Of a stretch of DNA of 64,000 nucleotides, positions 1,738 through 63,653 are shown in pieces. The notes beneath the pieces are model-generated. The model was not told the origin of the DNA. It ran no database searches and was given only the letters and a program-made list of their open reading frames with translations. The number at the start of each line of letters is the position of its first letter. The first letter of the stretch is position 1. The translations under genes were made by a program, and so were the position numbers. Source of the DNA: a virus (lineage: Duplodnaviria > Heunggongvirae > Uroviricota > Caudoviricetes); the IMG/VR virus record IMGVR_UViG_2740892442_000004, one strand, 5' to 3'.

Positions 1738-3078
1738 ATGACCGAACTTTGCCATACAGGACGCGGGCTGTCCGAAGAGTTTGATGAAGATTTCCAGAAC
1801 AGACTGACGGCATATTTTTGTCGTGATCACGAGTTTCTTACTCGTGCGGGAGATCTGGTTGTGCCTAGCCAATTTGCCAATGCGGCCAATGCCATATTGG
1901 TTAATATGGTTTCGGGCTATTACCGTATGTACAAGAGCGCGCCCTCTTCATCTGCAATTCTGGATATGCTTAAGCGTGCGAAACGCGATAAGACTATCCG
2001 TGAGGAACTATTCGCCGATGTTGTTGCTGCGTTTAAGCGCATCCTTGCAGAAAAATTGTCCGATACCTCGTACATGGTTGACCAGGTATCAACCTTCGCA
2101 AAAAGCGTAGCGTTTGATGATGCTCTGATTAAGGCTGCTGAACTGAAAGAGAAAGGCGACTTTCAGGGGGCGATGGCAATCATGGCCAAGGTTCAGCAGA
2201 TTGGATCGAACGAAGCGACCGGAATCTATGACTACTACACCTCCGCAAGTGAGCGATTGAAAGCGCGTGAATATGAGGCTTCAGAGGAGTATGTACCAAA
2301 CAGTATTACAACTGGACTCCCTCTTCTCGATAGGTTGCTGTACCAAAAAGGCTGGGCAAAGCGCGAAATGGTGCTCTTCATGGGGTTCGCTAAATCCGGT
2401 AAATCGACCGCAATGGGTGAGTTTTCCATAAACGCAACGCTTGCTGGCTACAATGTTCTGTATCTCTCGCTGGAGGTTCACACCACCATTTTATCCGACC
2501 GTTTTGATGCAAGATTGTCGGAGACGGAAATGTCCAAGCTGGTGGAACGGCGCGATGAGGTTCATCGTAAGTTGGCAGAGTTGGGAGCCACGAAGGGGAT
2601 TGGTAGTTTGTGGGTTGTCGAGCGTCCGTCAGGAAGTATGTCACCGGCAGACCTGGATCGTATGCTTAACAGCATGAAAGCCAATGGCATGGTGCCTGAC
2701 ATGGTTGTTGTCGACTACGCAGATTTGATGCGTGCCAGTTATGACCTTCGTGATGATCGCGCCAACATTCGTAGTATCTACACCGATTTACGTGCTCTTT
2801 ATGACAAGCATAACGTTGCTGGTATCACGGCGTCGCAAACAAACCGTGAAGGTGGCGCGTCAGAAGTTGCCACAATGATGCACGCTGCCGACAACATCGA
2901 AAAAGTACGTATTGCTGACCTGGTAATAACGATCAACAAAACCGAAGAAGAAGAAGCGAAAGGAGAGGCTCGTCTCTACTTTGCTGGTTCGCGTAACCAG
3001 CAGGGAGGGATCAGCATTCGCGTTAAACAAAACCTCGAACAAATGCGCTTCATTGAGCGAATCTTAGACGTTACCTAA
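1738..3078 (+). CDS. DnaB-like replicative DNA helicase
   Basis: Walker A GFAKSGKST, Walker B-like VVVDYADLM, RecA-fold C-terminal domain, 446 aa. Confidence 0.75.
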   Translation: MTELCHTGRGLSEEFDEDFQNRLTAYFCRDHEFLTRAGDLVVPSQFANAANAILVNMVSGYYRMYKSAPSSSAILDMLKRAKRDKTIREELFADVVAAFKRILAEKLSDTSYMVDQVSTFAKSVAFDDALIKAAELKEKGDFQGAMAIMAKVQQIGSNEATGIYDYYTSASERLKAREYEASEEYVPNSITTGLPLLDRLLYQKGWAKREMVLFMGFAKSGKSTAMGEFSINATLAGYNVLYLSLEVHTTILSDRFDARLSETEMSKLVERRDEVHRKLAELGATKGIGSLWVVERPSGSMSPADLDRMLNSMKANGMVPDMVVVDYADLMRASYDLRDDRANIRSIYTDLRALYDKHNVAGITASQTNREGGASEVATMMHAADNIEKVRIADLVITINKTEEEEAKGEARLYFAGSRNQQGGISIRVKQNLEQMRFIERILDVT

Positions 3079-3159
3079 AAAATAAGCGTGGAGAACACCT
3101 CCACGCTTGATTCATTGGTGAAACAACTTTTCTTTTGCCAAACCACAAAAGAAAAACAC

Positions 3160-4341
3160 ATGAGCCTTTATGTTATATCAACATTTAGGTTGGTCACAAT
3201 ATTGCCTGTTAAAAGTGGAATTATCGTGAGCGAGCTGAAAGAGCTAATTACCGAATTAGATTTTGAACAATGGTTGGATACTGAAGGTATCGTTTATCGA
3301 CGTGGAAGCGTGAGTGCTCGCGGTCGTGAAGTGAATATCAAGGAGTGTCCGGTATGCGGCAGCTCCAACTGGAAGGTATATTTCAATCTGACCAGCGGCG
3401 TAGGCAAATGCTTCGCTGGTGATCATCCCGAAGAGATTCAGTTCAATAAGCTGGTTTTCCTCAAGCACTACAGCGGCAAATCACGACGACAGTTCGAGGA
3501 ATATGTGCAGAACGCTCTTCTTTCGCAGGGGTGGGCACCAAAGAAAGAAGAAATAGTGCTTGCAAGCACAGTCGAGTTAGAGGGGCCACTTGCACTCCCT
3601 CGTCATTACGAACTTCCTATAGATGGCCGTCTTCCAGACTATCTGGTTGAACGAAACATATCGCCTGAAATGGCAAAGTATTTTGACCTACGATACTGCG
3701 TCGAAGGTAAGCACGCCTATGTAGATCCGTATACAGATCAGGTTAAAGGACAGATATTCGATATGCGAATACTGATACCGGTTTACGATCTGGATGGGGT
3801 AATGAAGACATTTCAGGGACGAGACATTACCGGTACAGCAGAACGCCGCTACCTCTTCCCTATGCAGCTGCCGGCGTCGGGTAAGTTTCTCTACAACGGC
3901 CACAACGCAGTCGGGAAACAAACAGTCGTTGTGTGTGAAGGGGCATTTGACGTAATGGGCGTGAAGCGAGCCATCTTCGACGAAAAGACGCTGAGGGATT
4001 ATGTAGAGCCAATTGGCACGTTCGGGATGCACTTGTCCGGAAATATGAATGAGGACGCTGAAGATCAGTTGGGCGCGTTCCTGACGCTCAAGGCGCGTGG
4101 ATTACGCAACGTCATCATGATGTGGGATAGCGAGAAGCAAGCGATCCGCAACACCATGTCGGCGGCCAAACGCCTCACCAGCATCGGACTAAATGTCAAA
4201 GTGGCCTGTCTGGGCGAAGAAGGTCTCGACCCCGGCGACGCGACGCCAGAGCAGATCCTCAAAGCCTATTATCGTGCCAAGCCTTACTCCAAACAGCTGG
4301 AGTTAAAATGCAAAGTGCTCGGTATCAAGTCACTCGTGTAG
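3160..4341 (+). CDS. DNA primase (zinc ribbon + TOPRIM)
   Basis: CPVCGSS...CFAGDH zinc-binding motif and VVVCEGAFDVMG TOPRIM-like motif; start set at ATG after conserved AAAGAAAAACACATG leader (ORF opens at 3088). Confidence 0.65.
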   Translation: MSLYVISTFRLVTILPVKSGIIVSELKELITELDFEQWLDTEGIVYRRGSVSARGREVNIKECPVCGSSNWKVYFNLTSGVGKCFAGDHPEEIQFNKLVFLKHYSGKSRRQFEEYVQNALLSQGWAPKKEEIVLASTVELEGPLALPRHYELPIDGRLPDYLVERNISPEMAKYFDLRYCVEGKHAYVDPYTDQVKGQIFDMRILIPVYDLDGVMKTFQGRDITGTAERRYLFPMQLPASGKFLYNGHNAVGKQTVVVCEGAFDVMGVKRAIFDEKTLRDYVEPIGTFGMHLSGNMNEDAEDQLGAFLTLKARGLRNVIMMWDSEKQAIRNTMSAAKRLTSIGLNVKVACLGEEGLDPGDATPEQILKAYYRAKPYSKQLELKCKVLGIKSLV

Positions 4342-9702: not shown

Positions 9703-9777
9703 GATGGTGTAGCTCAGCGGTAGAGCAGTTGGCTGTTAACCAACTGGTCGGTGGTTCGAATCCACCCACCATCGCCA
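9703..9777 (+). tRNA. tRNA-Asn (anticodon GTT)
   Basis: Cloverleaf: acceptor gatggtg/caccatc, D-arm tagctcagcggtagagc, anticodon loop ctGTTaa, T-loop ggttcgaatcc, CCA end. Confidence 0.75.
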
Positions 9778-9782
9778 ATTTA

Positions 9783-9869
9783 GGGGAGTTAGTCCGTAGA
9801 GGTAGCGGTGTAGACTGTAAATCTACTGTCATGGCGACTCGGGTGGTTCGACTCCATCACTCCCCACCA
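9783..9869 (+). tRNA. tRNA-Tyr (anticodon GTA), long variable arm
   Basis: Acceptor ggggagt/actcccc, anticodon stem-loop gtagaCTGTAAAtctac, T-loop ggttcgactcc, CCA end. Confidence 0.65.
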
Positions 9870-9873
9870 AATT

Positions 9874-9949
9874 GCCGGTTTAGCTCAGTTGGTAGAGCAG
9901 TCGCTTTGTAAGCGAATGGCCAGCGGTTCAAGTCCGTTAACCGGCACCA
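9874..9949 (+). tRNA. tRNA-Thr (anticodon TGT)
   Basis: Acceptor gccggtt/aaccggc, D-arm tagctcagttggtagagc, anticodon loop ttTGTaa, T-loop ggttcaagtcc, CCA end. Confidence 0.65.
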
Positions 9950-10269
9950 ACACAACAGGTAAGAGCATTGGGCGAATCGGCGATACTGACCCACAAGGCC
10001 GTAAATCGATAGAGTCAGACCAGTGCTCTTACCGTTGTGAGGAAGTGCAGCTCTTTGAAGCAACCAGAAGATAAGCATCTGGCTTCACAACACAACGATA
10101 ATATCATTACGGTTAATCGTCGTTCATGTGCACAATGACTGGTCGAAAGGTAGTGATCTTACCGTTGTGATGAATGCACAGGCTGATGTGCCGCAACTAC
10201 AGTAGTGCGCGCTTTGCGGGGCTTGCTACAACCCTGTGTCGGAGTTCAGCACCGACCATCACAATAGCT

Positions 10270-10356
10270 GGAGAGTAGGGAGCATGGTGCTCAAGCGGTC
10301 TTGAAAACCGTCCCATTGTGCAAACGATGATGGTTCGATTCCATTACTCTCCGCCA
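10270..10356 (+). tRNA. tRNA-Ser (anticodon TGA), long variable arm
   Basis: Acceptor ggagagt/actctcc, anticodon stem-loop gcggtCTTGAAAaccgt as in enterobacterial tRNA-Ser(UGA), T-loop ggttcgattcc, CCA end. Confidence 0.7.
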
Positions 10357-42306: not shown

Positions 42307-43410
42307 GTGTCACTCCTTTTGAATCGTGAGCATACGAACGGTCAGGTAACAAACGCATCGTATGCAAAAGTTATTGAGACGGTGCTTAAAAGCGGCGTGC
42401 AGGCTGATGATCGCACAGGCACTGGTACTTTAAGCACCTGCTACGTTCCCTCTTACTACATGCTTACTGGTGGGACTGTGCCGCTTATTTCTGGAAAGGC
42501 GGTAAATCTTAAGCCACTGCTTGTCGAACTTGAGTGGTATCTGAAAGGCACGGGCAACATCCAATTTCTCAAGGATAACGGCGTTAAGATTTGGGATGCA
42601 TGGGCCGATGAGAATGGCGATTTGGGGCCGGTTTACGGTAAGCAGTGGCGTCGATGGGAAGATACCCGCATCGTGAGCCATAGTGAATATCTGAGCAAGA
42701 TCGCTACTTTCCGTGAACGCGGGTACAAAGTCGAGGGATACCTGGGTATCAGTGAAGATCGCGTAGTGCTGTCCCGTGAAATCGATCAGCTACAGCGTAT
42801 TGTCGATACACTGCGCACGAACCCTACCGATCGTCGCATCATGCTTAACGCATGGAACGTAGGCGAGCTTGAGGATATGAAACTGCCACCTTGCCACTTT
42901 GTCTTCTCTTTGTGGAGTCGTGAGCTGGATTTTGAAACCCGTTTAACGATGGCAACTGACATTGGTCTTCAACACAGTCGCCTCGGTTACGAGTCTATCT
43001 ACACCAAGATGCTATACGATCTGGAGATGGACGGCAGTGTTACTGAAGCTGAACTGGATGAACTTGGAATCCCCAAACGCATCCTCAACTCCTGCCTCGT
43101 ACAGCGTAGCGTAGACACTTTTGTTGGTATGCCATTCAATATTGCTGGCTATGGCATTCTCACTCATTTTCTCGCGAAGATTACGGGTCACATGGCCGGT
43201 GCATTTGTGCATTTTGGCTTTGACGTGCATTTGTACAACAACCACATGGAAGGTGTGTGTGAGCTAATGAAACGACAGGCTCCAGAGCATTCAGATCCGG
43301 TCGTTATTTTCCCTCATGAATGGTCAGAGTTGGATGATTTCAAATGGGACGAGGTTTTAATTCTTGGCTATGACCCTCTATCGTGGATCAAGGTTCCAGT
43401 GGCGGTGTGA
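42307..43410 (+). CDS. thyA: Thymidylate synthase (ThyA-like) with internal insertion
   Basis: DRTGTGTLS, GPVYGKQWRRW, catalytic PPCHF, LVQRSVDTF...PFNIAGYG; about 50-65 aa insert after the catalytic Cys; start uncertain (ORF opens 42280). Confidence 0.7.
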   Translation: MSLLLNREHTNGQVTNASYAKVIETVLKSGVQADDRTGTGTLSTCYVPSYYMLTGGTVPLISGKAVNLKPLLVELEWYLKGTGNIQFLKDNGVKIWDAWADENGDLGPVYGKQWRRWEDTRIVSHSEYLSKIATFRERGYKVEGYLGISEDRVVLSREIDQLQRIVDTLRTNPTDRRIMLNAWNVGELEDMKLPPCHFVFSLWSRELDFETRLTMATDIGLQHSRLGYESIYTKMLYDLEMDGSVTEAELDELGIPKRILNSCLVQRSVDTFVGMPFNIAGYGILTHFLAKITGHMAGAFVHFGFDVHLYNNHMEGVCELMKRQAPEHSDPVVIFPHEWSELDDFKWDEVLILGYDPLSWIKVPVAV

Positions 43411-51900: not shown

Positions 51901-52515
51901 ATGTTCGGGATGTCAATTACTCAATCAGATGGAAGTTTGTGGATGAGTCCAGAATTTACTCCGCAAAATCTGATTAATAAAGGGACAATGTCTACATCTA
52001 AAGGTTCTGTTTTTCAAACATCAATCCCATCAAACAAATCATGCTTTTTCTTCATAAAAAGCAGTAATAAGGCGAACATGATGTTTATTCATGAGCATAG
52101 TAACGGATACAATGCTCTCAGATTGCATCAGGTAAATGGTAGCCCCGGAACAATAACAGTTTATGCTTTTTCTGATATGGTGTTACCACATTCTGGCTAT
52201 GGCATTGCCATGTATAACAGCGCAGGCGCAATGGTGTATCACGGTGAGATGATGCCCCTTGATGCGAAACTTATCACTATTTCTGACCCTCAATTTACAA
52301 TAGATATGGGGTATCCATGTGCGGTAATGCCTGCTATGGTTGGGGTATATAACTATAGACGAACCGATTACGACAGACCTGTCTATGTAACAATGACAGG
52401 TGCAACTGGAAACCAAGTATATAACGGTCAATGGTATTCCGGTAATGTCACATGGGATATTAAGAAGATTTATACAAACAAAATTCTGGTGATAAATACC
52501 TCCAAGTATGATTAG
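51901..52515 (+). CDS. hypothetical protein, AT-rich, beta-rich composition
   Basis: 204 aa; ORF opens at 51844. Confidence 0.4.
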   Translation: MFGMSITQSDGSLWMSPEFTPQNLINKGTMSTSKGSVFQTSIPSNKSCFFFIKSSNKANMMFIHEHSNGYNALRLHQVNGSPGTITVYAFSDMVLPHSGYGIAMYNSAGAMVYHGEMMPLDAKLITISDPQFTIDMGYPCAVMPAMVGVYNYRRTDYDRPVYVTMTGATGNQVYNGQWYSGNVTWDIKKIYTNKILVINTSKYD

Positions 52516-52618
52516 CCAATGCCTTTATTTGAAGGATTGCCTGTTTATTTCTATTTAGTACCTTTTCATTTTTGAAATAATTGCACCATTAAACAAATCA
52601 CTTCTTAATGGTGCAATT

Positions 52619-54304
52619 ATGAATACAGCCCTTTCCATCATCGACGATGCCAACTCAAACACTGCTATCGACTATCGGCAGGAAATGAACGTCATCCACG
52701 AAATTGTGGCCGAGTGCGAGAAAGAGATCGCCTTCATGTATCAGGTACACGACTTCGTTTATGGCGACGAACGCCACAACATGATTAATCGCCTGCTGAG
52801 ACTAAACCATCGACCAGATGAAGATCGCTCGCGTTTAAATCGAGGTTGGTTGGATAAAGTCGATCTGGAATGGGTGAAACAGAATATTTGGGCCGAGTAC
52901 TGGAGGAAGGTCACGGACATGACTAACGTTTTGCTGATCATGCCAGCTTCCCGTCGAGATGAGTGGCGCGAGCAGTTTATAGAGGGCAAACAGGAAGTCA
53001 TCAAAACTGACAGAACCGGCTACCAGATGAAGGTTAAAGAGTTCGTTGGTGTACCGGAGTTCAAAGCAGAAACGGTCATACCCACGATGCTTAATTTGCT
53101 GAATGACAGGCACAAATATCTCTCTGAGCGCGTGTATGGCTTGTTTAAGGCGCTGAGTCCTGCGCACAAGACAAATAAGACAAACGGTTTCAGCGAACGT
53201 CTGATAATCGCTGACTGCATTTCTGATTTCTGGCGGGACAGCGTTAGTGTGAACTATCGCAAAGAGGACTATATCGACGATCTGCGTGTCTTGCTTCATT
53301 TCTTCGCGCACAAAGAATTTATTACCATCAACCGCACTGCTGAGGTGCTATCAGCTGCGTATCGGGCAAACGACTGCCAGACCGGTGACTGGATGAACGT
53401 CGATGGAAATCTAATGCGCGTGAAGATGTTCAAGAACGGCAACGTTCACTTTGAAATACATCCTGACGTGGCCTGGAAGTTGAATGAGGTGCTGGCTTAC
53501 AGTATGCCTGCTGCAATCCCCGCGCCATGTCGCACCGCGCCAAAAACACGGGCACCAAAGCAGTTCGGGTTAATCCAGAAGACGATCTCCGTGCCGGTTC
53601 GCACTGCGCTTCGTGACGGGCGATTTAGCAAAGACAAAGGCGTATGGTACTTCTCTGATTCAGCTCTCCAGAAGTCGCAGGTGGAAGAGCTTGAGCGCAC
53701 ACTGAGCTTCATTGGCGGCGTGCAGGAGAAAAAGCACTGGCAGTTCCCGTATGAGATCGGCCATACGCTAAATACGATTGTGGCTACCGGTTTAATACCG
53801 GATACAAAATCACACCAGTTCTACCCTACCCCACGCTTGATTGCTGAGTACGTTGCCAGAGCCACTGAATTGAAGCCTGGTGAGAAGTTGTTGGAGCCTC
53901 AAGCCGGACGTGGGGATCTTCTGGCCTATATTAACGCCGATCTGGAAGATGTTACCTGCATAGAAATCGCACCTCTCTTCGCTGATATCCTGCGTGGAAA
54001 AGGGTATACGAACACGATTTGCTGCGACTTCATAAAGTGGTCTGAGGACAACGCAGGTTATCAGTTCGACAAAATCGTTATGAACCCGCCGTACTCGCTT
54101 GGTCGTCATAGAGAGCACACGCTGGCTGCGCTGGGGCATCTGAAAGTCGGCGGGCGTCTTGTAGCAGTATTGCCGGGCACTGCGCCAATACTGGACTGGA
54201 TGACGATGGATAATTACGTTTATGCCAGAGGGAAGTCGTTTACCAACGAGTTTGAAGACACAGGGATCACAGTCAGCGTATACGTTTTCAAACGCGTTAA
54301 ATGA
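52619..54304 (+). CDS. N6-adenine DNA methyltransferase with about 380 aa N-terminal domain of unknown function
   Basis: C-terminal FYPTP, EPQAGRGDL (motif I), MNPPYS (motif IV). Confidence 0.6.
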   Translation: MNTALSIIDDANSNTAIDYRQEMNVIHEIVAECEKEIAFMYQVHDFVYGDERHNMINRLLRLNHRPDEDRSRLNRGWLDKVDLEWVKQNIWAEYWRKVTDMTNVLLIMPASRRDEWREQFIEGKQEVIKTDRTGYQMKVKEFVGVPEFKAETVIPTMLNLLNDRHKYLSERVYGLFKALSPAHKTNKTNGFSERLIIADCISDFWRDSVSVNYRKEDYIDDLRVLLHFFAHKEFITINRTAEVLSAAYRANDCQTGDWMNVDGNLMRVKMFKNGNVHFEIHPDVAWKLNEVLAYSMPAAIPAPCRTAPKTRAPKQFGLIQKTISVPVRTALRDGRFSKDKGVWYFSDSALQKSQVEELERTLSFIGGVQEKKHWQFPYEIGHTLNTIVATGLIPDTKSHQFYPTPRLIAEYVARATELKPGEKLLEPQAGRGDLLAYINADLEDVTCIEIAPLFADILRGKGYTNTICCDFIKWSEDNAGYQFDKIVMNPPYSLGRHREHTLAALGHLKVGGRLVAVLPGTAPILDWMTMDNYVYARGKSFTNEFEDTGITVSVYVFKRVK

Positions 54305-54365
54305 TAGGTAAATGCTTACTTAATTTGTGTAAGAATGTAATAACTAAACGATAAGAGAAAAACAC

Positions 54366-55070
54366 ATGAACAACCTCCAGTTAGAGCATTTTAACGTCAC
54401 AGGCCATTCTGATTTTCCTTTCAAGTTTACATTGAAAGGTTATGCAGAGGATGCGGTAGGCCAGATCATTATTGATAAAGGCATCGTTAAGTTTGAGGGG
54501 GATTTTGATGAATCCGCGAAAACATTCATAGACTTCGTTGCCAAACGTTGGAGCGAGCAATGGAAAGACCTGGAAAAGCGCGCTAGTGAGTTTGATCGGT
54601 TCATGGATGCAATGGATACAGCAAAAGAGGCTCTTGCTGCCGGGACTCCGTTAGATCTGGAGTCACTTTTCAACGGCGAAGTGGCCTCTGCGATGTTCGC
54701 CACCATGTTCGCGGGTGAGTTCGTCCGCAGCGGTGCCAAAAACTACCTTGAGCTGGATTACAACGTCCCTGCAATTGGCGATTTCGTCGTTACCATCCAA
54801 CGCAAAGAAGGTAAGACGCCAGGTGAACGCGTCGCAGAACTTGAGGCTGTTGTGGATCAGCGTAACGGAGAGTGTGACCGTTTGATCAACGAGCTTCATG
54901 CACTTCGGGAAGAAAGAATATGCGAGGGTAGTAATACACGTAATGCAGCGGATATCTACTTCCAGTTAGTTGAGGAATGCCAGATTCCACCAGGTGGCTC
55001 TCTTGTCGATTACGTCGGACATTTAATGGCGGAAGTTAACTCCAGCCATAAAGATGGTGAGGTGCGCTGA
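54366..55070 (+). CDS. hypothetical protein
   Basis: 234 aa ORF after AGAGAAAAACACATG leader. Confidence 0.45.
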   Translation: MNNLQLEHFNVTGHSDFPFKFTLKGYAEDAVGQIIIDKGIVKFEGDFDESAKTFIDFVAKRWSEQWKDLEKRASEFDRFMDAMDTAKEALAAGTPLDLESLFNGEVASAMFATMFAGEFVRSGAKNYLELDYNVPAIGDFVVTIQRKEGKTPGERVAELEAVVDQRNGECDRLINELHALREERICEGSNTRNAADIYFQLVEECQIPPGGSLVDYVGHLMAEVNSSHKDGEVR

Positions 55071-55450
55071 TGTTTGGCATTGACGCACAGCGTATAGCCG
55101 CTTTTGCAAAAAGCCCTCTTGATAATCCCTTGTCTCGTAGTGAGCAAATGGAGCTGGCAAGGCTTTTTCTTCACATTCAAAAACAGGCAGACATTTTCAA
55201 TAACATGCCTAATCAACCTATTCTGGATGGCCACATCCAGATGGTCATTAACAGTCATGAGAAAGGCTGGGCTGCAATCGTCCCCTGCACAATTACATAC
55301 AAGTTGGCGAAAGAGGTTCAAGAGTTTCGAAAAGCCAGTGTCGAATCGGAGTCTACCAAAGCCGCAATAAACACTCTTATTCGCATGGGGTTCACATGGA
55401 CCGGTGGAGCCTACTGGCAAGCACCTCACCCCATTTTATCCGGCAATTAG
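55070..55450 (+). CDS. hypothetical protein
   Basis: 126 aa ORF. Confidence 0.4.
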   Translation: MFGIDAQRIAAFAKSPLDNPLSRSEQMELARLFLHIQKQADIFNNMPNQPILDGHIQMVINSHEKGWAAIVPCTITYKLAKEVQEFRKASVESESTKAAINTLIRMGFTWTGGAYWQAPHPILSGN

Positions 55451-55587
55451 ACGCTACAAATCCTTCGGCATGAATAAATAAAGGCCATAAGTTGTGGCCC
55501 TAAATAAATTGTTTTCTACCTTTTCTTATTTGTGAAAATAACCAGCACTTGGTAGTGCTTATGTAACAGCAAAGAAGAGAAAAACAC

Positions 55588-56139
55588 ATGAGTAACAAAA
55601 TCGAAAATCCCGTAGTTCTCATTCACAAGCGCGAGAACCACGACTCCTATGCGGTGGCGATCACCAATGGGAGTCACGATTTTTACGATGGCCTGCTAAT
55701 GGCCTCAGTGTCGCCTGATGAGGCAGACAACTCTTTTGCCGTCTTCGCTATGGTTGGTTACTACATGGCTGCCGAAATTGAGAAGTTGCGGGCGCAGAGA
55801 GACGCATTAGCGGCGGAGAATGTGGCATTGCGATCTAAGGCTGCGGAACTGGCACATGAAGCGTCAAAAATTTACTCGGCATATAACGCCACTATCACAG
55901 AGCCTGACGGGGATTTTATGGACATGCAGACATTGCATGAAATGCAGTGCATAGAAACTCCAGCCACCGATGCTTTTCTGGCTGAAGTACGTGCGCAGGG
56001 CGTGGATATGGCTCGTAACGCGATGATTGATTTTGTTGATGGTGAAGTTGGGCCAAACAAGAACGTTCCGGGGCTGATTAGAGGCGCAGAGATATGCGTA
56101 AGTATTGCTGAACTGCTTCGTAAAGGAGTCATCCAGTGA
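55588..56139 (+). CDS. hypothetical protein
   Basis: 183 aa ORF after AGAGAAAAACACATG leader. Confidence 0.45.
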   Translation: MSNKIENPVVLIHKRENHDSYAVAITNGSHDFYDGLLMASVSPDEADNSFAVFAMVGYYMAAEIEKLRAQRDALAAENVALRSKAAELAHEASKIYSAYNATITEPDGDFMDMQTLHEMQCIETPATDAFLAEVRAQGVDMARNAMIDFVDGEVGPNKNVPGLIRGAEICVSIAELLRKGVIQ

Positions 56140-56780
56140 GCAAGATTGACTATCAGGCACTGCGTGAGATAGCAGAGAAAGCAACGTGTGGTGTGTGGTC
56201 GCTCGAATATGGAGAGGGCCGATTTGATGGTGATGATGCACTAATTCATCGCGAGGCTGCTGGATATATTCCCATTTGCAGAATTGAAGGAGCGCATCCT
56301 GAAAGCGGTTTCGATGAAGATTTCCAAATGGAACAGCAGGCCAATGCTGAATTCATCGCCGCAGCCAGTCCGGCTACTGTGCTGACGCTGCTGGATGAAC
56401 GGGAAAGAAACCAGCAATACATCAAAAGCCGTGACCAGGAGAACGAGGAAATTGCGCTAACGGTAGGGAAGCTGCGTGTTGAGCTGGAAGCCGCAGAGAA
56501 GCGCATAGCAGAACTGGAGGCACGGGAAATAAAACCAGCCAAAGGCGAAGTTCTTGTCGTTGTATCTGGTTTTACTGGTTGCGGAAAAAGCGCCATTGCC
56601 GGGGAAATAGAAATCGCGATGAAGGCTATTGGTGTACCGGTTCAGTGGACTAATGGCGATGCGGAAAAGCGCATGACAGGAGCTGACTGGCTGACAGCGA
56701 TTGAGATGTACAAACCAACAGTGCGCATCGTGGAAGTTAATGTGCCACGCGCCCCTGGCATTCGCATCAAAGGAGAGTGA
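56136..56780 (+). CDS. hypothetical protein (possibly Ead/Ea22-like)
   Basis: 214 aa; N-terminal [14 protein letters not shown] segment; weak. Confidence 0.35.
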
Positions 56781-56781
56781 G

Positions 56782-57108
56782 ATGGCCACATCGCATTATG
56801 CAATCACCCAGGAAAAAGTATTTCGCTTGCTCGAACGTCTGGAGGCGCTCGCCACGGAGGAGGATATATCCCCGGAGATGCTGGTTGAGTGCAGCCGTGT
56901 GATATTGCGTCGCAAGAACGACATCGCGCGGTTGACATCTGGCGCACCATCCGTATCAGCCAGTCCAACGCTTTATTGCAGCTTCTGCAACAAATCCCAG
57001 CACGCCGTCAAAAAGTTAATTGCTGGGGACGCCGTTTTTATCTGCGACGAGTGCGTGGATGTGTGCAACAGAATTATCCGGGGAGAGAAAGAGGGATCAG
57101 CACGATGA
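56782..57108 (+). CDS. Small protein with ClpX-type zinc-binding motif
   Basis: C-terminal [37 protein letters not shown] closely parallels the ClpX N-terminal ZBD; four Cys conserved; AGGAG Shine-Dalgarno. Confidence 0.55.
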
Positions 57109-57290
57109 GAAAACTAGAGGTTCGCGCTGAAGACGTAATCCCTGGTGATGTGCTCATAACATCTAAAGGTCAACAATGTGCGGTTAAATCTTTCTGGATG
57201 GACGGTGACAAAGTGACTCTGTTCGGTACGGATGGTTCCGAAACTGATTATGACTACGACGAATTGCTTGTTGTTGAGAGAGCTGCCTAA
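57105..57290 (+). CDS. hypothetical small protein
   Basis: ATGA overlap with upstream stop; 61 aa. Confidence 0.35.
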
Positions 57291-57916
57291 TGACCACGGT
57301 TAACAATAAGAAATGCTACCCAAGCGAGAAATATCTTAATGAGCTGATCACCAACATAGAGTTTGCGGCAAGGGCACCAGTTGAAGTCGTGAGAGCAATG
57401 GCAGCAGAGCTACAGAAGCGGCGCGAAGCTGATAGTGCCGAACCTGCAAGTAATCATGAAGAGTTGCCGCTTGATTATCTCCAAGGTCAAAAAGATGGTC
57501 TTGAATGGGCTGCGCAGCTTGCAGAAGCAAATCACCCACAAACTGGCGACTGGCTTTACGATGACCCGCTGGAGCTGGCTAAAGCTATCAGAAAAGGTCC
57601 TGACATGCCCGAATTCGATGGGCCAACTCCGGTAACTCCGGATGGTTGGATAAGCTGTAGTGAGCAGATGCCTGTAATCGGCGAGCTAAATTGGAGAACT
57701 GGTTTTCCTTTGCTGATTACGTGTGAGATCGGCGTTATACCAGCTTATTACGGCTTTGTGAGCGTTAATGGGGATAAGCATTATGGTTTTATGGAAAGTT
57801 TTAAATACGGAGACGATCGCGGCGGCCATCCTAAAACTAATGAATATGGTCTGATTAGCAATGTCACACACTGGATGCCGCTACCAGAACCTCCGCAGGA
57901 GTCGAAGAGTGAATAA
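57290..57916 (+). CDS. hypothetical protein
   Basis: 208 aa ORF. Confidence 0.45.
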   Translation: MTTVNNKKCYPSEKYLNELITNIEFAARAPVEVVRAMAAELQKRREADSAEPASNHEELPLDYLQGQKDGLEWAAQLAEANHPQTGDWLYDDPLELAKAIRKGPDMPEFDGPTPVTPDGWISCSEQMPVIGELNWRTGFPLLITCEIGVIPAYYGFVSVNGDKHYGFMESFKYGDDRGGHPKTNEYGLISNVTHWMPLPEPPQESKSE

Positions 57917-58130
57917 AGCAGAGTTATTTCAGAAAATATCGGCTCTCGCGACTGAATGCCACGCTATAGCATCTGAGCTTGATGTTGGCGATGAACGAAC
58001 CGAGATGTTCGAAATATACAGTGTGCTGCGCAATCTCTGTCGGCGTGGCTACGCCACTCAAGTAGGGCGAATGACTAACCCACTACTCTCATCCTGTGAT
58101 GAGGATGACTCGGATGAGGATGACGAATGA
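57909..58130 (+). CDS. hypothetical small acidic protein
   Basis: GTG start with AGGAG 6 nt upstream; ORF opens at 57861. Confidence 0.35.
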   Translation: MNKAELFQKISALATECHAIASELDVGDERTEMFEIYSVLRNLCRRGYATQVGRMTNPLLSSCDEDDSDEDDE

Positions 58131-58510
58131 TGCATAAATCAGTAGCCGGTGAGTTTCAGAAGGAAGTCGATAATACCACTGATCTATTGGACGATATTTT
58201 AAGCATTCTCGCGCTGCTTGAGGCTGGCGATTGGTCAGAACATTGCACTAAAACAGAGCTAGGCGGTCGGCTTGAAAGAGAGATTACACGACTGATTAGC
58301 GATGCCCAAAATGATTTGTCACCTGAGCATCTCCCCTGCGATGTAGTTCTTGTGCCAGGGATGAGGATACACGAAGGCGTCAGAACGAAAACATTATTAA
58401 CCGCATTACAGAGAAGAGCCGAACTAAGCTCGCGGATAAAGTTGATGCCATCCAAAATATTTGATGTCGTCAAATTTATGCCATCGCAACATACTGAGAG
58501 AGATAAATGA
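58127..58510 (+). CDS. hypothetical protein
   Basis: 127 aa ORF, ATGA overlap. Confidence 0.4.
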   Translation: MMHKSVAGEFQKEVDNTTDLLDDILSILALLEAGDWSEHCTKTELGGRLEREITRLISDAQNDLSPEHLPCDVVLVPGMRIHEGVRTKTLLTALQRRAELSSRIKLMPSKIFDVVKFMPSQHTERDK

Positions 58511-59133
58511 GCACGGTAGCGAAAGATCTCACAGAAGATATTCTCAATGAAATTATTGCTGGTGCAAATACCTCGCTTGAGCAACTTCTTGCGTTAGCAC
58601 TGAGAGCCGAACGTCGAGACAGAAATCGTTTTTATGAGCGATTACCAGGGAAGCGACCAGATAGATCGGATGAAGAAGGTTGCGATATAGACTACATGGA
58701 GCCTTCAGAGATTTATCAACTTGGTAAAGATGACGGCTGGAACGCTTATCACGATGCTGTGATGAAGTTGGATGAAAAAGTTAAACCTCTTTCTCGACCG
58801 GTAGATCACGGTTTCCGCGATAACTGCGAATGCTCTAGTTGCCAGACCACGGCCCGTATTTGTTCCGAATTGACAGATAAGTCCAGCCTAATCTACGAAG
58901 TTAATGTAGGCGGTAATACATGGGTCGAATGCACAAGAGCTGCATACGTAAGAGCAAAAGACAAGGGTGAATTAACCAGAGTTGTTACCAATCACCCAAA
59001 TAATGAGCTTAAAGATCACCAGATTCGAGAACTGGTGAACGAGTTGAGAGATATTGCGGTTCAGTACCACGGAACGCAGCAATTGCGGGAGAAGATTGCC
59101 AGAGCAGTGAACAACTCAGTCCGTAAAAAATAA
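58507..59133 (+). CDS. hypothetical protein
   Basis: 208 aa ORF. Confidence 0.45.
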   Translation: MSTVAKDLTEDILNEIIAGANTSLEQLLALALRAERRDRNRFYERLPGKRPDRSDEEGCDIDYMEPSEIYQLGKDDGWNAYHDAVMKLDEKVKPLSRPVDHGFRDNCECSSCQTTARICSELTDKSSLIYEVNVGGNTWVECTRAAYVRAKDKGELTRVVTNHPNNELKDHQIRELVNELRDIAVQYHGTQQLREKIARAVNNSVRKK

Positions 59134-59188
59134 GCAATAGTACGATAAAGAGGCCCCATGCTCTTGATGGGGCCTGTAGCAACTAGCG

Positions 59189-59272
59189 TTATGGACGCTG
59201 GTTTACGTACTCAATGATCGCTTTGATAATCGCGAACATCGGCGGCACGATTTTGAACAGTAAGTTAACCAT
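59189..59272 (-). CDS. candidate small hydrophobic peptide (27 aa)
   Basis: MVNLLFKIVPPMFAIIKAIIEYVNQRP with GAGG Shine-Dalgarno about 8 nt upstream; below the ORF-track size cut-off. Confidence 0.25.
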   Translation of the reverse strand: MVNLLFKIVPPMFAIIKAIIEYVNQRP

Positions 59273-59934: not shown

Positions 59935-60324
59935 ATGGGCTTCCCTTCTCCTGCGGCGGATTATGCTGAGAGCCGTATTTCTCTTGATCAGCAGATAATT
60001 AGACATCCTTCAGCGACCTACTTCATGAGGGCAGCTGATAGTCATCATCGTGAGGGAATATTACAGGGTGCATTGCTGGTGGTCGATTCCTCACTTACCC
60101 CGGTTGATGGTTCTCTGCTTGTATGCGCTCTGGATGGGGAATATCGCGTAAAAAGATACCGGAAGTATCCACGTCAGCATCTGGAGGATTTAAGAACCGG
60201 TAAGAAGGAAGCATTGCCAAAGGATGACGATGGATGCACGGGCAGCAATGCCGTGTTTGGTGTGATCACTCACATTATCAACGACGCAAGAAGTGGCGAG
60301 TTTGATGATTGTCCCGTGATGTAG
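59935..60324 (+). CDS. UmuD'-like S24 peptidase-fold protein (resembles phage P1 HumD-type UmuD' analogue)
   Basis: Begins MGFPSPAADY, i.e. at the position of the UmuD Cys24-Gly25 cleavage site; Ser (ADSHH) and Lys (RVKRY) dyad positions retained; no umuC-like gene follows. Confidence 0.65.
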   Translation: MGFPSPAADYAESRISLDQQIIRHPSATYFMRAADSHHREGILQGALLVVDSSLTPVDGSLLVCALDGEYRVKRYRKYPRQHLEDLRTGKKEALPKDDDGCTGSNAVFGVITHIINDARSGEFDDCPVM

Positions 60325-60361: not shown

Positions 60362-61462
60362 TCACACTGCGCGGAATGCGATTTCGCCAGGTATTACTTC
60401 ACCTTGCCAATACATTTGGGCAGCAACGCGATCTGCGAGGTCACGATAAATAGCCGTAAATTCGCTATCTGGACGACTAATAACGGTTGGTGTTCCGTTA
60501 TCCAGATCTTCACGAAGAGAGATATGAAGTGGCATTTGGCCTAACAACTGCGTGTTGTATTTCTCGGCCAGTTTCTGTGCGCCACCGGTGCCAAAAATTG
60601 GCTCGTGATGACCGCAGTTACTGCAAATATGCACACTCATGTTTTCGACGATACCCAGTACCGGCACTTCGACTTTTTCGAACATCACAATGCCTTTCTT
60701 CGCATCGATCAGCGCGATGTCTTGCGGCGTAGTTACCACAACCGCACCAGTTACAGGAATGTTCTGCGCCAGCGTCAACTGAATATCACCAGTGCCCGGC
60801 GGCATATCGAGAACGAGATAGTCCAGATCAGGCCATAGAGTTTCCTGCAACATCTGCATCAGCGCCTTGCTGGCCATCGGTCCACGCCACACCATTGCAT
60901 TGTCGTCGGTGACCAGATAACCAATAGAGTTGGTTGCCAGGCCATGAGACATGATAGGTGCCATGTGAGTACCGTCAGGTGAGGTTGGACGTTGGTTTTC
61001 CGCGCCCAGCATGGTTGGAATTGATGGACCATAGATATCGGCATCCAAAATACCAACTTTCGCACCTTCAGCAGCCAACGCCAGTGCCAGGTTTACCGCC
61101 GTGGAGGATTTACCCACGCCGCCCTTGCCTGAGCTGACGGCGATAATGTTCTTAACGCCATTAATGCCTGGTTGGTTTTTGACGCGCTTAAGCGTGGCAA
61201 TGTTGTACGACAGCTTCCAGTCAATAGCCTTTGCGCCAGTGATACGGAGCAGATCACCACTACATTGCTCTTTCAGGTCTTCAAAAGGCTTATTCCACAC
61301 GAAAGGCATGATTAGTTCGACATGCAGTGTGTCATCCATCAACGCAACATGGTGTAACGCTTTAAGCGTAGTCAGGTTGTGTTTCAGGGTTGGGTGCTGA
61401 AAATTAGCCAGCGTACCGGCTACCATTGCTCTCAGGGCATCCGGCGATTTGGACTCGCTCAT
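60362..61462 (-). CDS. apbC: Fe-S cluster carrier ATPase ApbC/Mrp
   Basis: 366 aa; essentially collinear with E. coli Mrp as recalled; P-loop SSGKGGVGKSS; CxxC-containing ICSNCGHHEP. Confidence 0.9.
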   Translation of the reverse strand: MSESKSPDALRAMVAGTLANFQHPTLKHNLTTLKALHHVALMDDTLHVELIMPFVWNKPFEDLKEQCSGDLLRITGAKAIDWKLSYNIATLKRVKNQPGINGVKNIIAVSSGKGGVGKSSTAVNLALALAAEGAKVGILDADIYGPSIPTMLGAENQRPTSPDGTHMAPIMSHGLATNSIGYLVTDDNAMVWRGPMASKALMQMLQETLWPDLDYLVLDMPPGTGDIQLTLAQNIPVTGAVVVTTPQDIALIDAKKGIVMFEKVEVPVLGIVENMSVHICSNCGHHEPIFGTGGAQKLAEKYNTQLLGQMPLHISLREDLDNGTPTVISRPDSEFTAIYRDLADRVAAQMYWQGEVIPGEIAFRAV

Positions 61463-61619
61463 CCCGTCTCCTTTATTTTAATTTGCGCAATTGTCGCCTT
61501 GTAGTGTACTCCAGCTACGACATTTAATCATTTATGAGAAATGCTGTTATCACATGGCAGACATAAGGCCATTTTGTTACTATCAAGCCCCTTTTCACTA
61601 CAAAGAAGTAATGCCTACT

Positions 61620-63653
61620 ATGACCCAAGTCGCGAAGAAAATTCTGGTGACGTGCGCGCTGCCGTACGCTAACGGCTCAATCCACCTCGGCCATATGCTG
61701 GAGCACATCCAGGCTGATGTCTGGGTTCGTTACCAGCGAATGCGCGGCCACGAGGTTAATTTCATCTGTGCCGACGATGCCCACGGTACGCCGATCATGC
61801 TGAAAGCACAGCAGCTTGGTATCACACCGGAGCAGATGATTGGCGAAATGAGTCAGGAACACCAGACTGATTTCGCAGGCTTTAACATCAGCTATGACAA
61901 CTATCACTCGACGCACAGCGAAGAGAACCGTCAGTTGTCTGAGCTTATCTATACTCGCCTGAAAGAGAACGGTTTTATTAAAAACCGCACTATCTCTCAG
62001 TTGTACGACCCGGAAAAAGGCATGTTCCTGCCGGATCGTTTTGTAAAAGGCACCTGCCCGAAATGTAAAGCGCCAGATCAATACGGCGATAACTGTGAAG
62101 TCTGCGGCGCAACATATAGCCCGACTGAATTGATCGAGCCGAAATCGGTGGTTTCTGGCGCTACCCCGGTAATGCGTGATTCCGAACACTTCTTCTTTGA
62201 TCTGCCTTCTTTCAGCGAAATGTTGCAGGCATGGACCCGCAGCGGCGCGTTGCAGGAGCAGGTGGCGAACAAAATGCAGGAATGGTTTGAATCCGGCCTG
62301 CAACAGTGGGATATCTCCCGAGATGCGCCTTACTTCGGTTTTGAAATTCCGAACGCGCCGGGCAAATATTTCTACGTCTGGCTGGACGCGCCGATTGGCT
62401 ACATGGGTTCCTTCAAGAATCTGTGCGACAAGCGCGGCGATACCACCAGCTTCGATGAATACTGGAAGAAAGACTCCACCGCCGAGCTGTACCACTTCAT
62501 CGGTAAAGATATTGTTTACTTCCACAGCCTGTTCTGGCCTGCCATGCTGGAAGGCAGCAACTTCCGCAAGCCGACCAACCTGTTTGTTCACGGCTATGTG
62601 ACGGTGAACGGCGCGAAGATGTCCAAGTCTCGCGGCACCTTTATTAAAGCCAGCACCTGGCTGAATCATTTTGACGCCGACAGCCTGCGTTACTACTACA
62701 CTGCGAAACTCTCTTCGCGCATTGATGATATCGATCTCAACCTGGAGAATTTCGTTCAGCGCGTGAATGCCGATATCGTGAACAAAGTGGTTAACCTGGC
62801 CTCCCGTAATGCAGGCTTTATCAACAAGCGTTTTGACGGCGTGCTGGCAAGCGAACTGGCTGACCCGCAACTGTACAAAACCTTTACTGATGCCGCTGAA
62901 GTGATTGGCGAAGCATGGGAAAGCCGCGAATTTGGTAAAGCTATCCGTGAAATCATGGCATTGGCTGACCTGGCTAACCGCTATGTCGATGAACAGGCTC
63001 CGTGGGTGGTGGCGAAGCAGGAAGGACGCGATGCCGATCTGCAGGCGATTTGCTCTATGGGCATTAACCTGTTCCGCGTGCTGATGACGTACCTGAAGCC
63101 GGTACTGCCGAAACTGACTGAACGTGCAGAAGCATTCCTGAATACAGAACTGACCTGGGATGGTATCCAGCAACCGCTGCTGGGCCATAAAGTGAATCCG
63201 TTCAAGGCACTGTATAACCGCATCGATATGAAGCAGGTTGAAGCACTGGTGGAAGCATCCAAAGAAGAAGTGAAAGCCACAGCCGCACCGGTAACTGGCC
63301 CACTGGCTGACGACCCGATTCAGGAAACTATCACCTTTGACGACTTCGCCAAAGTTGACCTGCGCGTGGCGCTGATTGAAAACGCAGAGTTTGTAGAAGG
63401 TTCTGACAAACTGCTTCGCCTGACGCTGGATCTCGGTGGTGAAAAGCGTAATGTCTTCTCAGGCATCCGTTCCGCTTATCCAGATCCACAGGCACTGATT
63501 GGTCGTCACACCATTATGGTGGCTAACCTGGCACCACGTAAAATGCGCTTCGGTATCTCTGAAGGCATGGTGATGGCTGCTGGCCCCGGCGGGAAAGATA
63601 TCTTCCTGTTAAGCCCGGATGCTGGTGCTAAACCTGGCCACCAGGTTAAGTAA
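61620..63653 (+). CDS. metG: Methionyl-tRNA synthetase
   Basis: 677 aa from [26 protein letters not shown] (HIGH) with KMSKS; near-identical to E. coli MetG as recalled; track ORF opens upstream at 61491 with non-native extension. Confidence 0.92.

Follow-up and report, generated by a model that had tools for sequence, protein, structure and literature searches.

Sigma-S, proteins of the SOS and translesion responses, cell-division proteins, antitoxins, and several proteins of phage replication and transposition are under the control of ClpXP, and a large part of this control runs via a small N-terminal docking domain. A gene of a temperate phage encodes a copy of this ClpX domain within a protein of only 108 amino acids. 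The gene lies in a 64,000-nucleotide stretch of DNA (IMG/VR record IMGVR_UViG_2740892442_000004), which was analyzed as a whole and is referred to here as the window. What would a phage do with a ClpX docking domain that is not attached to ClpX? A sequence-only reading of the window had suggested a mimic or decoy of ClpX. Whether this suggestion holds depends on the integrity of the gene, the identity of its domains, the history of its family, and what is known of the docking domain in ClpX itself.

The gene and its reading frame

The gene occupies positions 56782-57108 on the + strand of the window and is an intact open reading frame (ORF) of 108 codons plus a stop. It is called the ZBD gene here because its product carries a ClpX-type zinc-binding domain (ZBD). 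A ribosome-binding site, AGGAGAG (56771-56777, + strand), is located 4 nt 5' of the ATG. The upstream gene is Ead/Ea22-like; its TGA stop codon occupies 56778-56780 (+ strand), and the ZBD gene begins one base later. At the other end, the stop codon of the ZBD gene and the start codon of the gene that follows share bases in the sequence ATGA (57105-57108, + strand). The next gene encodes a 61-aa protein that matches PHROG 15283. Because of this overlap, the ZBD gene and the downstream gene are putatively coupled in translation, as the ATGA arrangement indicates. No promoter-like or + strand terminator-like sites were found in the co-directional array that spans 52000-59200 of the window. The neighborhood is made up of small accessory genes, which include Ead/Ea22, DUF551, DUF4942, and several PHROGs of unknown function.

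Full length is also evident from comparison with relatives. The protein belongs to PHROG 6797 (E=9.5e-57), with its residues 1-106 matching profile positions 1-106 of 107, and it aligns end to end with relatives of 107-112 aa. On 49 other contigs, an identical 108-aa protein is annotated as the product of an ordinary gene. The protein has thus already been catalogued, as PHROG 6797 (function unknown) and in RefSeq as "ClpX C4-type zinc finger protein", and is less novel than the sequence-only reading implied. Many GenBank and RefSeq records, those of phages D6 and P88 included, use the name "carboxylate--amine ligase" instead. This name has no domain support and appears to be a propagated misannotation. 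No functional study of the ZBD family, or of any stand-alone phage ZBD protein, was found in the full-text literature.

Is the gene a dead one? In NZ_CP103696.1, the closest RefSeq record, the PGAP annotation marks the ZBD gene as a partial pseudogene covering only 56932-57087 of the window. PGAP also flags the upstream Ead/Ea22 gene as partial in that record (83908-84859); both ORFs are intact in the window (56136-57108). Codon analysis revealed that two allele types recombined to give the window allele. Over the N-terminal domain, its protein sequence is the same as in a D6-type allele (L009); over the ZBD, it is almost identical to an SSU5-type allele (L007). Such mosaicism probably confuses evidence-based annotation of both the ZBD gene and the Ead/Ea22 gene. 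The pseudogene flag on the ZBD gene is therefore regarded as a likely annotation artifact of a mosaic allele, because the ORF is intact, positions 1-106 of the 107 in PHROG 6797 are covered, and the identical protein is found on the 49 contigs. Someone following PGAP could take the two partial flags, together with the recombinant nature of the allele, to mean that the gene is a non-functional remnant or pseudogene. This is very improbable for a gene whose frame is intact and full length against both its family and PHROG 6797, whose ribosome-binding site is present and whose stop and start codons are coupled, whose exact product is annotated elsewhere as a normal gene, and whose family retains every zinc ligand under purifying selection.

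A ClpX-type zinc-binding domain at the C-terminus

Residues 63-102 (56968-57087, + strand) form the ClpX-type ZBD, as identified by Pfam, a search of the PDB, and Foldseek. The Pfam family zf-C4_ClpX (PF06689) matched residues 65-100 over profile positions 2-38 of 39, with E=4e-17 and 62.2 bits against a gathering cutoff of 27 bits. In a sequence search of all PDB chains, the best matches were the E. coli ClpX ZBD structures 1ovx and 2ds5 (E about 7e-17); below them came only other ClpX proteins, and everything else had E > 0.2. The sequence-only reading had described the C-terminal stretch as following the ClpX ZBD closely. The peptide it quoted corresponds to residues 64-102, and the window ZBD is indeed identical to E. 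coli ClpX at 30 of 42 residues (71%). The ZBD of P2-type relatives is 74% identical to residues 10-51 of E. coli ClpX.

Structure prediction agrees with the sequence searches. An AlphaFold2 model built from 20 family sequences had a mean pLDDT of 70, with about 80 in the ordered parts and 75-82 in the ZBD. The modeled ZBD consists of a beta-hairpin and a C-terminal helix. When compared by Foldseek with the ClpX ZBD structures 2ds5-2ds8, it superimposed at 0.7-0.8 A rmsd on most chains and at 1.3 A on 2ds5_B, with target-normalized TM scores of 0.82-0.89. With 1ovx included, the ranges were 0.7-1.6 A and 0.76-0.89. The next Foldseek classes were LIM and RING zinc fingers at E > 0.4. A generic zinc ribbon, which the sequence-only reading had named as the finding that would undo it, is ruled out because Pfam, the PDB search, and Foldseek all give a specific ClpX-type ZBD.

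The C-x2-C...C-x2-C ligands noticed from the sequence are present as C66, C69, C88, and C91. They align to C14, C17, C36, and C39 of ClpX and are invariant in 21/21 family members. The first zinc knuckle, C66-S-F-C69 (56977-56988, + strand), includes F68, the equivalent of ClpX F16, and is invariant in all 21 members. The second, C88-D-E-C91 (57043-57054, + strand), contributes the two cysteines that align to ClpX C36 and C39, both of which are invariant in the family. In other words, the identity of the domain as a ClpX-type ZBD, predicted to be zinc-competent, is confirmed. The 108-aa protein is not a ClpX unfoldase. The full-length ClpX models TIGR00382 and NF003745 gave 44.7 and 46.2 bits, respectively, far under their equivalog cutoffs of 370.75 and 359 bits, and only model positions 5-48 were matched; the protein is also 108 aa only.

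How much of the ligand-binding surface of ClpX has been kept? The hydrophobic core and the zinc ligands of the ZBD are invariant or nearly so within the family. As far as the ligand patch can be mapped by two residues, F16 and I46, the equivalent of F16 (F68) is invariant and the equivalent of I46 (position 98) varies among I, V, L, and A in the 21 family members. The variable positions of the ZBD cluster at the turn of the hairpin (83, 84) and along the last helix (93, 94, 97, 98, 100, 101), and D6-type alleles have Asp at the position of ClpX L42. Judging from the alignment, the variation near the I46 equivalent (93, 94, 97, 98), the change from L42 to D included, could alter contacts with ligands or at the dimer interface.

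The N-terminal hairpin and the linker

The sequence-only reading had described the rest of the protein as an unrelated N-terminal region, and this was borne out: a region of about 63 aa bears no relation to ClpX. Residues 10-52 (56809-56937, + strand) form a two-helix hairpin that is a domain unique to the family, according to AlphaFold, HMMER, and profile searches of the PDB and Pfam. In the AlphaFold model, its helices comprise residues 10-26 and 31-52, with pLDDT about 80. The hairpin is followed by a flexible linker rich in Ser, Ala, and Pro (residues 53-62; 56938-56967, + strand), whose pLDDT falls below 50 at residues 54-60. The length and sequence of the linker differ among lineages in the alignment.

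An exhaustive HMMER scan of residues 1-59 against 1.84 billion cluster representatives yielded only 9 matches. Seven of these were members of the same family or its truncated or frameshifted copies, and the other two were repetitive, unrelated-looking proteins. A profile search with the N-domain found no relatives in the PDB at E up to 10 and only noise above E=0.05 in Pfam. Within the family, the N-domain is marked by invariant charged residues: E11, K12, E18, R19, E21, E26, E27, E36, R44, and D47. Because this conserved domain is unique to the family, the protein appears to do more than present a bare ZBD.

Several relatives differ in how the protein begins. Four of them (P0009, P0010, P0013, and the gene at 2941-3303 of locus L010) have 12-13 extra residues at the N-terminus. 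In another, P0025, an Ea22-like coiled coil replaces the hairpin and is fused to the same linker and ZBD. Since the coiled coil takes the place of the hairpin in P0025, domains appear to have been shuffled at the linker. Comparison of the alleles shows apparent recombination both at the 5' end of the gene and at the linker.

The host element

The gene was thought from the sequence to reside on a mobile element, and the element proved to be a phage-plasmid. The window is 99.7-99.9% identical to the E. coli plasmid pMB3825A_2 (NZ_CP103696.1). Its genes include dnaE, nrdAB, recA, a gp32-like SSB gene, a ligase gene, CobT/MoxR, four tRNA genes, and a gene for a RepB initiator; because of this content, the element is an SSU5/pHCM2-type phage-plasmid. 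The four tRNA genes (Asn-GTT, Tyr-GTA, Thr-TGT, and Ser-TGA) are clustered at 9703-10356. A D6-like backbone was ruled out since the gene content is SSU5/pHCM2-like, and D6-type plasmids share the accessory cassette only.

The plasmid pMB3825A_2 carries an insertion at about 42447-42455 of the window that consists of ISEcp1, bla(CTX-M-14), IS903B, and a TonB-receptor fragment and splits the thymidylate synthase gene. Carriage of bla(CTX-M-14) as in NZ_CP103696.1 was ruled out for the window, which does not have this 4.8-kb insertion. For that reason, the window represents the ancestral form, without interruption, of a phage-plasmid that gained an extended-spectrum beta-lactamase (ESBL) gene elsewhere.

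Two features lie downstream of the ZBD gene. A gene of the HumD family (UmuD'-like, S24 peptidase) is located at 59935-60324, 2.8 kb away. Beside it, at 60362-63653, are a divergent apbC (mrp) gene and metG, which encodes methionyl-tRNA synthetase. The pair looks like a captured host segment because apbC and metG are presumably divergent neighbors on the E. coli chromosome too. The turnover of UmuD/UmuD' uses tethering to the N-domain of ClpX; HumD is for this reason a conceivable beneficiary of a ZBD competitor. No S24/HumD gene was present in the 7-12-kb stretches examined of the P2-type carriers of the ZBD gene.

Distribution and evolution of the family

Relatives of the ZBD gene were found in 218 of 5,426 complete E. 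coli genomes (about 4%, including UTI89 and strains of O55:H7 and O104:H4), in 106 plasmid and 125 chromosomal places. They occur on three temperate backbones. SSU5-type phage-plasmids are represented by the window element and by p09EL50 of O104:H4. The D6/P1-type phage-plasmids include phage D6 itself. The third backbone is that of P2-type prophages, to which P88 and the prophages of UTI89 and O55:H7 CB9615 belong. The gene was thus shown to pass as a single-gene cassette between temperate elements of three kinds in Escherichia and Salmonella, the only genera to which named family members belong.

On the P2-type backbone, the gene order was the same in 5/5 loci examined: gpA, ParM, ParR-like, the ZBD gene, variable genes, and portal. 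In L002 (4480-6151), L003, and L013-L015, the ZBD gene lies directly 3' of the ParM/ParR-like (StbA/StbB) pair at a fixed spacing of 63 nt. The phage-plasmid copies of the ZBD gene do not adjoin partition genes. The order from gpA to portal places the gene in the gpA-gpQ locus, where accessory and anti-phage genes of P2-like phages have a hotspot (Rousset et al., PMC9122126). Because of the ParM/ParR-like neighbors in 5/5 loci, and because the other two carriers are kinds of plasmid prophages, the family appears to be tied to elements with plasmid-style segregation.

A conserved partner gene, or a two-gene module, was ruled out because the downstream gene differs by backbone. Among P2-type prophages, the downstream gene is shared over its first approximately 55 residues only. 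Since no partner gene is conserved across backbones, the target of the protein is probably a host protein. Neither the protein nor its neighbors, in the window or in the P2-type locus of UTI89, matched any defense model in PADLOC-DB v2.

How old is the family, and where did its ZBD come from? Between phage-plasmid and P2-type alleles, synonymous divergence is saturated (dS at least 1.4) and dN/dS is 0.2-0.35, a ratio that points to purifying selection between the lineages. When the ZBD gene was searched by blastn against the 5,426 genomes, host clpX was not found. Against clpX of K-12, nucleotide identity is 64% and identity at third codon positions is 36-48%, at a protein identity of 71-74%. 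The blastn result and these nucleotide and third-position identities rule out a recent capture from host clpX. Third positions this diverged at such a high protein identity instead suggest an old acquisition followed by long maintenance of a ClpX-like sequence. It was also considered whether the ZBD is matched to its host, as a mimic might be. This argument was dropped because ZBDs are so conserved that many non-enterobacterial ones score alike (58-71 bits, versus 64.6 bits for E. coli ClpX in a separate PDB search).

ClpX-type ZBDs outside ClpX

The family is not the only place where a ClpX-type ZBD occurs without ClpX. Six metagenomic proteins of about 130 aa (P0035, P0068, P0070, P0082, P0085, and P0101) have an N-terminal ClpX-type ZBD, an 'LPTERLLERL' helix, and a C-terminal helix-turn-helix (HTH; …SWAQIGAALGISRQSAWERF). 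These ZBD-HTH proteins are a large, apparently uncharacterized family with a different use of the ZBD. A stand-alone ClpX-type ZBD was also seen, as an independent case, in the lytic Caulobacter phage Cr30 (L011, NC_025422.1), at 1486-1725, in an ORF of up to 79 aa. The Cr30 record annotates only the last 41 codons, as gp170, with a start in the middle of the domain; the ORF is truncated or misannotated. The free ZBD ORF of Cr30, together with PHROG 12435, suggests that phages acquired the ZBD more than once. ZBD-HTH proteins, ZBD-sigma proteins, the mini-ZBD of Cr30, and PHROG 12435 are all alike in having a ClpX-type ZBD outside ClpX. However, their ZBD is N-terminal or alone, their partner domains are different, and they have no hairpin.

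A possible competitor for ClpX ligands

The reading favored here, at a probability of about 0.42, is that an accessory protein of temperate phages presents a free ClpX docking domain, which would compete for ZBD ligands or cap the ZBDs of ClpX. According to this model, the protein would dimerize, as the isolated host ZBD does, and would bind the proteins or motifs that dock on the ZBD: the SspB tail, RssB, substrates of the lambda O and MuA type, the UmuD tether, and trigger factor. The bound ligands would be withheld from ClpX. Alternatively, the ZBDs of ClpX would be capped via heterodimers. Either way, adaptor-dependent proteolysis by ClpXP would be selectively damped. The helical N-domain would probably provide oligomerization, and with it avidity, or a second, specific contact. 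What could be the payoff? A phage or plasmid protein, or host sigma-S, might be stabilized. Another candidate payoff is that ClpX would be denied to rival phages that need it, such as Mu, which depends on ClpX. A broader version of the idea, held tentatively and at less than even odds, is that a phage mimic of the ClpX docking domain reprograms ClpXP. It might do so as a pan-anti-adaptor that soaks up adaptors and substrates, or as a ZBD-heterodimer plug whose N-domain chooses the cargo.

The biology of the ClpX N-domain provides the grounds for this model. In ClpX, F16 and I46 define a hydrophobic pocket for lambda O, trigger factor, SspB, and RssB (PMC7804408). The N-domain is needed for MuA, FtsZ, and adaptors but is dispensable for ssrA tags (PMC5415555), and it is required for SspB, RssB, and lambda O (PMC5415555; PMC7804408). 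More direct precedent comes from a finding that 5-20 uM of purified ClpX ZBD, supplied in trans, inhibits the RssB-mediated breakdown of sigma-S by 0.6 uM ClpXP (PMC7226468). The ZBD alone dimerizes, and it crosslinks to the C-domain of RssB (PMC7226468). Given this N-domain biology and the inhibition in trans, a competitor or heterodimer cap is the simplest reading of the phage protein. A decoy function is plausible: like the other two roles raised by the sequence-only reading, heterodimers with ClpX and redirected proteolysis, it is consistent with all of the findings, and it has a biochemical precedent.

Some observations weigh against a simple decoy. In vitro, the precedent depended on ZBD in large molar excess, and a simple decoy may therefore have only a weak effect in vivo. 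Nor would the strictly conserved N-terminal domain be required in a bare decoy. Furthermore, the F16/I46 patch is conserved in ZBD-HTH proteins too, so its retention is not specific evidence for a decoy. The decoy reading is likewise weakened by the presence of the ZBD in ZBD-HTH proteins and cyanobacterial sigma factors.

Other explanations

One possibility is that the protein is an adaptor. Its ZBD would heterodimerize with the ClpX ZBD or join the ZBD cluster of the hexamer, the hairpin would bring a specific cargo, and proteolysis would be redirected. Much like tethering adaptors such as SspB, the protein has a binding domain connected to a docking element via a flexible linker, and its family-unique N-domain, with many invariant charged residues, suggests a specific binding surface. 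Heterodimers are conceivable because the ZBD is 71-74% identical to that of host ClpX and has kept the hydrophobic core. However, the ZBD is reported to form homodimers readily by itself (PMC7226468), its exchange into assembled ClpX hexamers is hypothetical, and no candidate cargo gene adjoins the ZBD gene in all backbones. An adaptor role is for these reasons improbable.

The ZBD may also act independently of ClpX, as a zinc-stabilized module for dimerization or peptide binding in regulation, replication, partition, or inter-phage exclusion via another target. Nature has used the domain in other settings, since it is joined to HTH modules in the ZBD-HTH proteins and, in cyanobacteria, to sigma-70 factors (PMC11119718). 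The ParM/ParR-like pair that precedes the gene in 5/5 P2-type loci, and the plasmid prophages that make up the other backbones, hint at a link to a plasmid-like lifestyle common to the three backbones, and the gpA-gpQ locus is a documented accessory and anti-phage hotspot (PMC9122126). Against this reading, the phage-plasmid copies are not beside partition genes, and the protein, like its neighbors, has no PADLOC match. Moreover, host ClpX has a ZBD as similar to that of the family as any ZBD outside it, and this likeness was kept over saturated synonymous divergence. A ClpX-independent function is accordingly rather unlikely, and competition for ClpX ZBD ligands, or capping of the ClpX ZBD, remains the preferred reading.

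Comparison with known systems and significance

How would such a protein compare with what is already known? It shares with the ZBD at the N-terminus of ClpX the fold, the C-x2-C...C-x2-C ligands, 71% identity (E. coli), and the F16/I46 patch. It differs from ClpX in being a phage protein without an AAA+ motor, and its ZBD is C-terminal rather than N-terminal and follows a family-unique hairpin. A functional parallel to a free ZBD is the recombinant isolated domain of Micevski et al. 2020 (PMC7226468), whose binding of RssB and block of delivery are the activity proposed for the phage protein. The recombinant domain is a laboratory fragment of a host protein, whereas the phage protein has been naturally selected and has an extra domain. 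The ZBD and the anti-adaptor IraD have been proposed to use an overlapping site on RssB (PMC7226468). Like the phage protein as modeled here, IraD, IraM, and IraP of E. coli are small proteins that disturb adaptor docking, spare the protease, and thereby stabilize a substrate of ClpXP. In contrast, they are without sequence or fold relation to the phage protein, in which Pfam recognized the ZBD alone, are encoded by the host, and are specific to RssB, whereas competition by a ZBD copy would extend to all ligands of the ZBD.

Phages are known to inhibit other AAA+ proteases of the host: PinA of T4 and Gp4.5 of T7 act against Lon, and CIII of lambda acts against FtsH. These too are small phage proteins that modulate regulated proteolysis of the host, although they act on other proteases and have unrelated folds and mechanisms. 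To our knowledge, none of the three copies the docking domain of the protease itself. As a mechanism, the proposed competitor would be a variation on a known theme, in which small proteins impede adaptor docking or host proteases. If the model is true, the phage protein would be the first natural protein known to work by copying a protease's own substrate-docking module, and free ZBDs in unrelated phages such as Cr30 may then reflect a recurrent viral strategy. As a decoy, it would provide a simple and selective switch on the adaptor-dependent branch of proteolysis and possibly a research tool. If the protein works independently of ClpX instead, the ZBD would be a general-purpose module and domain-based annotation would be misleading here. 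The question bears on how plasmid-like prophages, which are frequent in clinical E. coli and Salmonella, manipulate their hosts.
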